DNA of 62,000 nucleotides, from the NCBI GenBank assembly GCA_013239625.1, contig MU053216.1:124001-186000 (forward strand). The letters are read 5' to 3'. The stretch is from Lama guanicoe. Lineage: Eukaryota. Shown piece after piece: positions 45,501-49,103 of this stretch. Below the pieces are notes generated by a model. It did no database searches. It saw nothing but the letters and a program-made list of their open reading frames with translations, and had not been told where the DNA came from. Numbering within the stretch: the stretch's first letter is position 1; every line of letters starts with the position of its first letter. The position numbers and the translations under genes are program-made.

Positions 45501-48500
45501 TTTCCAGCGTCTGGAGCACAGAGCCCGGTGCTCAGCGAACGCTGGGCCCGCGGCGTCACTCAGTCGGGCTGTGGCTGTCTGGGCGGCCCACACCGGAGAT
45601 GCTTGTGCTGCTCACACTCGGGGTGCTAGGACTTGCCCTGTGTCGTGAAGGGAGGGCACAGCTGCTAGTTACTGCTGTCTGTGGTCAGCGGAGTATGTTT
45701 CCTGGCTCCTCTGATAAACTCAGTGGAAGCTGGGGGCGTGGATGGGAACGCCATCTGGCAGGTCCTCAGTTGGCTTACCCAGCATTTACCCAACACGATA
45801 CATGTCTGTGTTGATCGGATTGTGATCTTCGGAAGGAGTCACATAGGGATTAAAAGTCCATATGACCTGTTTTCGTACAGAGATGCCTTACTTCCCAGTG
45901 TGCTCTTCACCCCTGAAGTCAGTCCAGGTGAAACCAGGAGCACGAAAGGCTTGGTGGCTATGAGTGGATTTGGGCAGATCTGAGAGGCCAGGGGACAGAC
46001 TTCTTTCAGAAAATCAAGCCTTTTTGCTAGCTGCTGCCTGATGAGAACCCCAGCTGCTTTCACGGGGCTGGTGGGAGTATTTTCAGTCCTGAAGATGCCT
46101 TATGTAGAATGTTTCCTTCCTCTAGGTGTCTCAGCCTCCTGGCGCCACATCCTTCTCCGTACCCGGTGACTGGGACAACAGAACCTCCTATTTACACTCT
46201 CCCTTCTCTGCTGGACGGAGCTGCATCCCCCTCCATGGTCTGTACTGTCATCATCCTGATGGTTGTTGTTAGTTGGAGGGCTGAACAGTCGTAAGTGACC
46301 TCGCAGTAGGCTTCTGTTGTAGATAAGCAGGTACCATAACGTAGGATGTGGGTTACTGTGTGTATATCTGCAGGGTAGGAGAGGGGCATGTTCAAAGGCT
46401 TATAAATGCAGCAGAAACACAAAGGAAGGCTTTATATCCGTTACTTTCAGGGATGAGAAGGTCAATCCCATGCCAACCGATAATTAAACACCAAGCATTT
46501 TGGTCAGATGCTGAGTCATGGGTTCCTTTGTTACTTCATTACTTAGAAGACTTGAGGAGGGTCTTCGAAGACCTGCCCCCTTTCTCCTGCTTACCTGTAG
46601 ATGACTGCCCCACAAGTTCTGTCGCAGTTCTGGTCCTTAGTCGCACCATCATAGGGTATGTAGTAATGGGGTTGGGGCCATGTGGTCCACTCAGAGCGCC
46701 CAGGCCCTTGGCTTTTCTGTGCTCCTATTACAGCTGTCATGGCAGAGGTTAGAATAAGGAAGTGAGAAGTAGTCCTTCCCTGGTCATCAGAGACAGAAAA
46801 TCTCATCTGGGCTCTGTTAAGCTGTGGCTTTGGGCATGTGGAGTGACCCTAACTTGAACTGAATACAGTTTAAAGGGAGAGGCAGTCCCCCTGCTCATGT
46901 CCCAGGTAGGCATCCGAGTGGAACACTGTTTGTCCTCGTCACTGTGTTTGGTCTGGTCCTCAACAGGTATTAGTCCAGAGGTGAATGAACTGTTGATGGA
47001 AGCCCAGTTGCTCCAGGTATCCCTTCCTGAAATTCAGGAACTTTACCAGACATTACTTGCAAAGCCGAGCCCTGCTCAGCGAGCTGACCGAAGCTCTCCA
47101 GTTGGACCTGGCAGTGAGAAGGTGGGCGTCGGAGCTGCTGCTGGGGGCAGGGTCCGGGTGGGGGTGCTTCTAATTGTGCTTCCATCGAAATAGCTCAGGA
47201 ACAAAATTACGTCTTTGATCCAGGAAAAGGTAAAGTCCTTCCACCTCACAACCCTGTTCCCATGGCTGTAAGCAAGCACTTTGGGCTCATAGCCTGGATT
47301 TTGATCCCCCTTTTTAAAGTCATTGTGCGAAAAAATTTTTTTCTTTTTAGCAAGGTGCTTCTGATCATTTCCATGTGATAACAGCTAGATGCAGGATTAT
47401 TTTTCTTCTATAAGAAAATACTGTAGAGATGAAAATGTAATTACAGCTGGAAGGCCTTTGGGGTAAAGCCTTCATCACTGGAGTCAGCGCTTAATAAGCA
47501 CTTTACTCTCCTGACAAGACAGTGGCTGTGAGGACAGGTGTCTAGGCCAAGGGTGCCTGTGTTGAGTGCTGACGGACTTGAAGGGGTGGCTCTATAATGT
47601 CCTTTTTTTTTTTTAGCAGTGTAAGGGTCTTCCCCTTAGTGAACTAACTGGCCTGTGGCATTTCAGGCCCCTGAGAGGATGGTCAGCCAGGTAGGGAGAG
47701 CCCCACTGCAGAGCGTAAGGGCGGGCCCTGCCCTTGAGGATTCACTGTTTGCTGTGACCCCAAGGAGTGTAGCGCCAGTTATCAGTTGTGTTCAGTTAGT
47801 GCTCCTTCCTCCTCTAGGGGGCAGGCACGTCCTTAGGGAAGGAAGTGTTGGCCTGGTTCCTTAGCAGCCTTCGGGTCAAAGGACAGATGTGAACACCTAG
47901 ACTGAGCGCAGAGGTCACTTACTCGGGGTTTAGCGAGAAGAGGACTATAGGCATCTCACCGTCTCCCGGGACTGCTTGGCTGATTTGAAACTAAGCACTT
48001 CAGGGACGTTTCTGTTTCTCAGTGTTACTCTGATACATGTTGTCCTGTGGGACACAGAGGGAGGTGTGATTGGGGTGTGACACGTGTCAGAGTTGGTGTG
48101 GGAGCACCTGGCTTCTCATGCAGCTGGTTCTTAGCTTCACTGGTTGTAGCAGGAGGCGGATTAGGCTAAATGCAGTTTGCTGTCTTCCACCCAGAGTGAC
48201 AGCTGCCGCGGGAAGCGAGACGGAGTCAGCGGTCTCGAGAGAAAACTGAAGAGACGCCTGGAAAGAGAAGGCCTCTCCAGTGAGCGGTGGGAGCGAGTCA
48301 CCAAAATGAGGGCCCCCAAAAAGAAGAAAGTCAAACTGAGCCACCCCAAGGACACGAACAATTTCAAGTTAGAAAGAGAGCGTAGCTGTGAGTTAGTCCC
48401 TTCCGGCGACACTCACTCCCTGCCCTCGGACACGTCCTGCTCCGAGCAGGAGGACTCTGAGGATGAAGACGCCCTCTGCCCGGCCGTGAGCTGCCTGCAG

Positions 48501-49103: not shown

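Follow-up and report, generated by a model that had tools for sequence, protein, structure and literature searches.

KDM5B and the replacement cluster in its last exons

The stretch of DNA analysed here, referred to as the window, comprises 62,000 nucleotides of the Lama guanicoe genome (GenBank assembly GCA_013239625.1, contig MU053216.1, positions 124,001 to 186,000 of the forward strand). Its plus strand carries the gene of the H3K4 demethylase KDM5B, and the present study concerns the last two exons of this gene, exons 26 and 27, in which amino-acid replacements are clustered and directed from A/T towards G/C. The exon model was built by tblastn of the Mustela KDM5B protein (P0015, 1544 residues) on the window, followed by refinement of the junctions. 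It contains 26 exons, all with AG/GT borders, in a single open frame of 1476 codons plus a stop codon (TAA at 49101-49103). Because the window is collinear with residues 69-1544 of the 1544 residues of the Mustela protein, the exons are numbered from 2 to 27. The domain order of KDM5B is ARID, PHD1, JmjC, C5HC2, PLU-1, PHD2 and PHD3, the domain set being the one seen on an artiodactyl orthologue. Exon 26 encodes a charged linker and the first half of the third PHD finger (PHD3), while the coding part of exon 27, which translates as [45 protein letters not shown], supplies its second half and the C-terminal tail. A search with the exon 26 protein gave 163 proteins at E<=0.001 among 281 candidates. 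Among the best 120 of these 163, which are the matches listed, Camelus ferus KDM5B (P0003) was 100% identical, the runner-up reached 86%, and the named matches were KDM5B save for a few "hypothetical protein" records. The coordinates of the main features are collected in Table 1.

In order to polarise the differences along the gene, the residue present in at least 60% of nine placentals from outside the artiodactyls was taken as ancestral at each site, this consensus being cross-checked with marsupials, a monotreme, a bird, an alligator and a tuatara. With A/T designated W and G/C designated S, the nucleotide class of each replacement was inferred from the window codon and the consensus residue. 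Over the whole gene, 97 differences were found, 84 of them with a confident ancestor. Exons 26-27 contain 24 replacements in 145 sites, so that about one residue in six is altered; 17 are W>S, none is S>W, one is W-W, two are S-S and four are ambiguous. The remaining exons contain 60 replacements in 1294 sites, with 31 W>S and 14 S>W. Replacements are therefore denser in exons 26-27 than elsewhere in KDM5B (odds ratio 4.1, p=7e-7), and the 17:0 split departs from an even one (binomial p=1.5e-5 vs 0.5) as well as from the 31:14 split of the other exons (Fisher p=0.007). The replaced share of sites goes from 2.3% in exons 2-19 (21/908), which include the ARID and JmjC exons, to 10% in exons 20-25 and 17% in exons 26-27. 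Together, these results show that the one-way, clustered replacement pattern in exons 26-27 is real and significant, and that the two marks of a W>S-biased cluster, a polarised W>S excess at replacement sites and clustering on a scale of about 1 kb, are both present.

In exon 27, 10 of the 45 residues are unlike those of the KDM5B PHD3 chain of PDB entry 2ma5. These changes are N>S, Q>R, M>T, I>V, V>A, T>A, V>A, K>T, S>G and K>R, and the corresponding window codons are AGT, CGG, ACG, GTG, GCG, GCT, GCG, ACG, GGC and AGA. Each of the ten involves at least one A/T-to-G/C step and none of them requires a G/C-to-A/T step. The 2ma5 chain is identical to the ancestral states of exon 27, on which the nine placental outgroups agree and which are also found at most of the changed positions in the marsupial, monotreme, bird, alligator and tuatara sequences; at the second V>A change the outgroups are divided between V and G, and its polarity is uncertain. 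In exon 26 the window departs from the outgroup consensus at 16 residues, for 14 of which the ancestor is confident; no S>W change occurs among the 16.

These data agree with much of the initial annotation, which had been made by comparing the sequence with the human protein and which proposed that amino-acid changes at 48195..49103 run almost entirely from A/T to G/C. This interval is exactly that of exon 26, intron 26 and the coding part of exon 27. The human PHD3 sequence used for it is identical to 2ma5, all ten exon 27 differences from it can indeed be explained by A/T-to-G/C changes when the window codons are considered, and the same direction, which the annotation had attributed to most exon 26 differences, was recovered there. 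Its description of the ARID and JmjC exons as nearly invariant is likewise supported by the 21 differences in the 908 sites of exons 2-19.

An artefact was also considered, since an incorrect human sequence or exon model, a misassembly or confusion with a paralogue might produce such a cluster, and the gene model P0003 of C. ferus has evident errors. This model contains a 9-residue insertion (VSEVWAIED) through use of an in-frame GT at 48543, as well as several misjoined segments. With the obvious mis-joins set aside, the window differs from P0003 at four isolated residues: N294S, E653Q and S1145P (window residue, position in the window protein, P0003 residue) and a serine of exon 27 that is discussed below. 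Judged by this protein, the window is Camelus-like and derives from a lineage or individual near C. ferus but separate from it. Against an artefact stand the identity of the human sequence with 2ma5, the AG/GT borders and open frame of all 26 exons, and the occurrence of the same residues in nine other artiodactyl proteins. A search of the animal's own genome found one full KDM5B copy, with exon 26 in the parent gene only. Finally, 20 of 24 public runs were near-identical to the window over 44001-54000, containing 0.78 to 0.97 of the words sampled from this region, and the other four contained next to none; the 20 runs thus offered no camelid distant enough for polarising the changes. In view of these observations an artefact is barely credible.

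Base composition, the PHD3 finger and other features of the window

The replacement cluster lies in a GC- and CpG-rich block that ends sharply at the stop codon. The core of this block, 48195-49103, has a GC content of 0.598, a CpG observed/expected ratio (o/e) of 0.69 and 56 CpG. The flank upstream (47001-48000) has a GC content of 0.50 and an o/e of 0.34, and the flank downstream (49104-50103), which belongs to the 3' untranslated region (UTR), 0.438 and 0.23. Exon 27, which the initial annotation had called CpG-dense, contains 13 CpG in 138 bases (o/e 0.97), and exon 26 contains 20 (o/e 0.74). Intron 26, with a GC content of 0.598 and an o/e of 0.58, ranks at the top of the 25 introns in the window, the others ranging from 0.31 to 0.535 in GC and from 0.10 to 0.43 in o/e. 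The GC content at third codon positions (GC3) is 0.71 in exon 26 and 0.72 in exon 27, compared with 0.44 in exon 25. On a larger scale, GC rises steadily along the window (1-62000), values of about 0.31-0.40 over its first 36 kb giving way to 0.50-0.64 over its final 18 kb, which places the 3' end of KDM5B on a GC-rich shoulder; replacement density and W>S excess go up together with this gradient.

A CpG island is usually defined by a length of at least 200 bases, a GC content of at least 0.5 and an o/e of at least 0.6, and 48195-49103 has the composition of such an island. An RNA gene or a repeat was considered as the cause of the block and rejected: the Rfam scan of the window gave no match within the block and only six distant, intronic tRNA-like matches, and Tandem Repeats Finder detected no tandem repeat in 47000-50500 (0 rows). 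The coincidence of the block with the replacement cluster suggests that it is a product of substitution bias and not a selected element.

Another fragment of KDM5B was found elsewhere in the genome. Positions 925-1597 of locus L005 (G000:C2805:67010-70108) match window 49004-49678 on the opposite strand with 97.6% identity over 677 columns. The match covers the last 100 coding bases of exon 27 and about 575 bases of the 3' UTR, has an abrupt start within exon 27 and runs into an A-rich segment at its other end, so that L005 looks like a 5'-truncated retrocopy of KDM5B mRNA. It differs from the window by 10 substitutions and 6 gap columns; the window has S and the copy W at seven substitutions, the reverse is true of two, and one is W/W. 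The two differences in the coding part are CpG in the gene and TpG or CpA in the copy, which fits protection of the CpGs of the gene and ordinary decay of the copy alike. As a fossil for polarising the burst of replacements L005 had to be discarded, since it is too young: it already carries all the derived exon 27 codons in its span, and the split of its substitutions fits decay equally well. Metagenome contigs were also tried as a source of outgroup DNA and rejected, because only one of 498 peptide-pattern matches passed tblastn, at 57% identity over 23 residues, and it was unrelated.

These observations bear on an explanation without gene conversion, namely that the block is a functional CpG island unmethylated in the germline, for example an intragenic promoter or enhancer, or the result of a local mutational bias, the tail having drifted towards GC under relaxed constraint. 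The island-like composition of 48195-49103, its sharp borders and the two L005 coding differences, which look as if the CpGs of the gene were protected, speak in its favour. Hypomethylation, however, preserves CpGs; it does not generate A>G or T>C outside them, where the tract has changes such as I>V, N>S, S>G and K>R. Furthermore, point mutation in mammals is biased toward A/T, so that relaxed constraint alone would not yield a 17:0 split, and no RNA family or repeat accounts for the block. We regard this explanation as unlikely.

In the PHD3 finger all eight C4HC3 zinc ligands and both tryptophans are kept (LCPAVSC...VQCDGSC..FHQVC...YVCARC), as the initial annotation had also pointed out. 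The part encoded by exon 27 alone matches the Pfam PHD domain PF00628 with 34.9 bits (cut-off 24), and phmmer gave E values of 7.7e-24 to 2ma5 (KDM5B PHD3) and 3.3e-18 to 2kgg (KDM5A PHD3). Tryptophans W1502 and W1512 of KDM5B are presented in the available part of PMC4225485 as the likely methyl-lysine cage residues. Zinc ligands and cage tryptophans are alike in the window and in the H3K4me3 readers of known structure, KDM5B PHD3 (2ma5) and KDM5A PHD3 (2kgg, 2kgi, 3gl6 and 5c11). Compared with 2ma5, the ten exon 27 changes include the two residues directly before W1512. In human numbering they are N1510S, Q1511R, M1524T, I1531V and V1533A, plus five changes in the tail, past the last zinc ligand. 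With no ligand or cage tryptophan lost, and with five of the ten exon 27 changes located beyond the last ligand, the H3K4me3 reader is probably still functional.

As a control, the PHD3 exon of the paralogue KDM5A in the same genome (L004) was examined. It differs from 2kgg at 1 of 37 residues. Its GC3 is 0.54, its flanks have a GC content of 0.45 and an o/e of 0.24-0.36; the same 37 codons of KDM5B have a GC3 of 0.76 and contain 9 CpG. As the KDM5A exon is near-unchanged, these data demonstrate that the burst is specific to the KDM5B locus and not to this type of reader domain.

Two further observations concern this part of the gene. Hippo and whale (whippomorph) proteins (P0011, P0025, P0028-P0030) have CACC where others have CARC or CVRC, at the position of a CGC codon in the window. 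This Arg-to-Cys change, which is the one expected from CpG decay, adjoins the last zinc ligand of PHD3 and gives the finger an extra cysteine. In addition, reading through the exon 26 donor (window 48516-48572) yields [18 protein letters not shown] and then a stop, and closely similar tails are present in the predicted mammal proteins P0005 and P0038 (Rhinolophus). This tail reflects either a conserved intron start, a retained-intron isoform without half of PHD3, or annotation noise.

Elsewhere in the window, the six tRNA-like Rfam matches (29-44 bits) all lie in KDM5B introns far from the tract and are most likely the heads of tRNA-derived short interspersed elements rather than tRNA genes. 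The 5.6-kb intron 20 contains an L1 fragment, whose neighbour, a 315-residue frame at 34854-35801 on the plus strand, has no Pfam match. A run of 96 N at 61181-61276, an assembly gap, lies about 12 kb downstream of the KDM5B stop codon; the GC content of 0.64 in 61001-62000 is the maximum of the window, and the GC-rich region around the gap may be the CpG-island region of the next gene.

Table 1. Position, strand and supporting evidence of the features identified in the window
Feature	Position	Strand	Evidence
KDM5B exons 2-27	6423..49103	+	tblastn with Mustela P0015; exon 26 identity to Camelus ferus KDM5B
Exon 26, 107 codons: basic/acidic linker and first half of PHD3 ([14 protein letters not shown])	48195..48515	+	AG/GT flanks
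Intron 26, 450 bases	48516..48965	+	
Exon 27 coding part, 45 codons and TAA: second half of PHD3 and C-terminal tail	48966..49103	+	PF00628 match
AGT (Ser) codon, two residues before the second cage Trp	48996..48998	+	Asn in the C. ferus model, hippo, whales and all outgroups; Ser in ruminants
GC/CpG-rich block, GC 0.585, CpG o/e 0.63, 59 CpG	48001..49103	.	Composition; sharp end at the stop codon
3' UTR start, AT-rich, GC ~0.4	49104..49678	+	Composition
tRNA-like matches	2180-2253, 14777-14848, 16564-16635, 19056-19130	-	Rfam
tRNA-like matches	24695-24766, 30713-30784	+	Rfam
L1 fragment, 232-residue open frame, in intron 20	36001-36699	-	Transposase_22 and dsRBD-like domain of L1 open reading frame 1 (ORF1), E ~1e-22 to 1e-25

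Distribution of the replacements among artiodactyls and other mammals

The age of the replacements was evaluated in an alignment of 29 C-terminal sequences, in which the artiodactyls other than camelids comprise ruminants (goat, sheep, buffalo and cattle) and whippomorphs (hippo, sperm whale, pygmy sperm whale, killer whale and narwhal). Ruminants and/or whippomorphs have 20 of the 24 replacements found in exons 26-27: 12 are shared with both groups, 3 with ruminants only and 5 with whippomorphs only. The four that are seen in neither group and are camel-only are C>S in SDSC, I>V in KKKVKL, A>G in PSGD and I>L in DALCP. All ten changes of exon 27 are found in at least one other artiodactyl group and seven of them in both. 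The nine other artiodactyl proteins have 26-33 replacements each in these exons, with 19-26 W>S and 1-4 S>W. At several sites a third state is observed; for example, K>T in the camel and ruminants corresponds to A in whippomorphs, and I>V in the camel and whippomorphs corresponds to A in ruminants. Such sites support an origin on the artiodactyl stem.

Camelids are usually placed as the earliest branch among living artiodactyls. Given this position, the shared changes would have occurred on the artiodactyl stem, unless they arose in parallel. The comparison of proteins thus shows that most of the burst predates the divergence of the living even-toed ungulates and would have been inherited by the camelid, and the share of the camelid branch itself would lie between 4 and 12 of the 24 replacements. 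This result disagrees with the initial annotation on one point. It had attributed the changes to the branch leading to the animal in hand, and had named, as an observation that would speak against this, that the residues are ancestral for artiodactyls, which is what we find for most of them. A comparison with human alone can indeed misassign an old, clade-wide change to the species in hand.

A gene conversion bias acting on the camelid branch could account for the 17:0 direction, for the four camel-only replacements, for a recent N>S change that is missing from the C. ferus model and for the CpG richness that the tract still has. It does not account for the presence in ruminants and/or hippo and whales of 20 of the 24 replacements, including all ten of exon 27. 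Moreover, just two of the four camel-only replacements in these exons are W>S, and counted over the whole gene the changes confined to the camel lean only slightly to one side (by our tally, 12 W>S and 8 S>W). A camelid-branch origin is largely refuted at the protein level, and we consider it highly improbable.

The N>S change is the serine codon of exon 27 listed in Table 1. The distribution of Asn and Ser at this site points to a recent or parallel A>G change, which would be the sole exon 27 change attributable to the recent lineage of the window. Two further differences between the window and C. ferus have a clear polarity; both are S>W and lie outside the tract, and these numbers are too small to weigh.

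Outside the artiodactyls, bat and rabbit proteins (P0054, P0040, P0056, P0092 and P0050) were aligned to exons 26-27 of the window. Pteronotus has 29 replacements (W>S:S>W 24:0), Rhynchonycteris 17 (12:2) and rabbit 20 (13:0). Pteronotus is W>S-biased over the whole protein, with 47:2 and 55:3 in the other exon groups. The same exons are near-unchanged in Mustela (2 replacements), Mirounga (2), Cercocebus (1) and Sciurus (1). The pattern is thus episodic, the burst being seen in 10 of 10 artiodactyl sequences, in bats and in rabbit, and absent in the two carnivores, the monkey and the squirrel. Some orders keep the segment under tight constraint, whereas in others it has been overrun time and again, each time toward GC.

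Dense replacements in a segment that is near-frozen in other orders could also mean that positive selection remodelled the H3K4me3 reader together with the C-terminal linker in ancestral even-toed ungulates, the GC direction being a by-product of the favoured residues. It would fit with this that N>S and Q>R immediately precede the cage residue W1512, and selection is possible for single sites such as N1510S and Q1511R. KDM5B is also reported under selection in sheep and cattle scans, according to the portion of a review available to us (PMC8230064), but that claim, as worded there, bears on within-species scans and not on the residues at issue here. Positive selection predicts neither the 17:0 direction, nor the GC- and CpG-rich intron, nor bursts in the same direction at partly the same sites in bats and rabbit, and half of the exon 27 changes fall in the tail past the last zinc ligand. 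For the burst as a whole we find this explanation very unlikely.

Probable biased gene conversion at the 3' end of KDM5B and its known counterparts

The best explanation for these results, and in our view a probable one, is GC-biased gene conversion (gBGC) that affected roughly 1 kb of the KDM5B 3' end, for the most part in the ancestor of artiodactyls. This explanation draws on the direction and the clustering of the replacements, their pattern among lineages, the present-day composition of intron 26 and the conservation of the PHD3 core. The recombination-driven fixation bias proposed in the initial annotation is thus retained as to its nature, with the direction, the ~1-kb clustering, the composition of intron 26 and the spared PHD3 core on its side, and abandoned as to its placement on this branch.

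According to this model, A/T-to-G/C changes would have been fixed preferentially in the last ~0.9-1.1 kb of the coding region, from exon 26 through intron 26 to the stop codon in exon 27. The cause would be gBGC, a stretch of the GC-rich 3' end of the gene having been active in recombination. That the bias is one of fixation rather than of mutation, and that it is tied to recombination, we infer. The artiodactyl ancestor may have been its main setting, with independent recurrences in bats and lagomorphs. The camelid would have inherited most of the changes, its own branch adding 4-12 of the 24 and the recent lineage of the window adding N>S. The lasting resemblance to a CpG island could be due to an ongoing bias against the fixation of G/C-to-A/T changes, or to germline hypomethylation.

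Several points weigh against this explanation. The direction counts come from replacement sites, and the evidence from neutral sites consists of present-day composition (intron 26 and GC3). The rest of the gene leans W>S too (31:14), which makes part of the signal a broad compositional trend and not a hotspot, and the GC3 of exons 26 and 27 is equalled or exceeded within the gene by exon 12 (0.82), exon 20 (0.745) and exon 14 (0.71). Exon 26 encodes a charged linker in which relaxed constraint could have raised the rate, although it would not on its own make the changes run one way. For a burst more than 50 million years old, the survival of so many CpGs needs an extra assumption. As regards its timing, parallel gains could account for the eight sites at which a single further artiodactyl group has the change, and the artiodactyls compared with the camelids are ruminants, hippo and whales.

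The observations in bats and rabbit lead us to a broader proposal, which we put forward tentatively and hold to be possible rather than probable. The 3'-terminal exons of KDM5B may be a recurrent target of an episodic W>S fixation bias that struck at least three independent times (artiodactyl stem, bats and rabbit), each time rewriting 12-23% of an otherwise near-frozen segment, and the CpG-island-like block of artiodactyls may have persisted for tens of millions of years. Such a persistence would require a continuing bias or an acquired germline hypomethylation. If the proposal is correct, KDM5B PHD3 is a natural experiment in which a dosage-sensitive chromatin reader tolerates, or compensates for, a gBGC load.

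These results have practical consequences as well. Because replacements are dense in a reader domain that is normally frozen, the KDM5B C-terminus of artiodactyls, whales or bats could be picked up by scans for lineage-specific positive selection. In view of the one-directional pattern and the GC-rich intron, a signal in the KDM5B tail should be treated first as an artefact of biased fixation. At the same time, the naturally tolerated substitutions in PHD3 and the tail constitute a test set for the effect of such changes on H3K4me3 reading.

Episodic gBGC producing A/T-to-G/C amino-acid changes that can be mistaken for adaptation is described in the accessible portions of four reports (PMC12290510, PMC3744432, PMC10691551 and PMC11173204). 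In the parts available, the first concerns episodic gBGC driving AT-to-GC amino-acid changes in rodents, the second phastBias tracts, and the third the acceleration of otherwise ultraconserved elements by gBGC; with the first two, the process can be taken as established. A full-text literature search found no paper tying KDM5B to biased gene conversion; KDM5B is absent from the supplement of PMC12290510, which was searched in full, and from 10 of the 19 supplement files of PMC3744432, bioRxiv supplements being outside the search. The KDM5B tail would be a fresh case of an already known phenomenon, its modest added interest lying in the recurrence across orders and in the persistent CpG-island-like block.

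Compared with intragenic and 3'-end CpG islands, the tract is alike in its length of ~0.9 kb, its GC content of 0.60, its o/e of 0.69 and its sharp borders; it differs in that it is recognised here by its composition and that it coincides with a replacement cluster. With the gBGC tracts of PMC3744432 and PMC12290510, as these are presented in the parts of both papers at hand, it shares the one-way W>S replacements, the clustering at the kilobase scale, the episodic occurrence in lineages, the part taken, by its composition, by adjacent non-coding DNA and the potential to mimic positive selection. Unlike them, the KDM5B bias is seen at replacement sites and in present-day composition, and it is old, dating in all likelihood from the artiodactyl stem, yet has kept the composition of a CpG island. 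The gBGC-accelerated ultraconserved elements of PMC10691551, again as described in the available text, offer a further parallel, since the KDM5B segment is near-invariant elsewhere (1-2 changes in 145 sites in carnivores, monkey and squirrel) and evolves fast and with a GC bias in some lineages. The KDM5B tract, however, is a pair of protein-coding exons and not a non-coding ultraconserved element.

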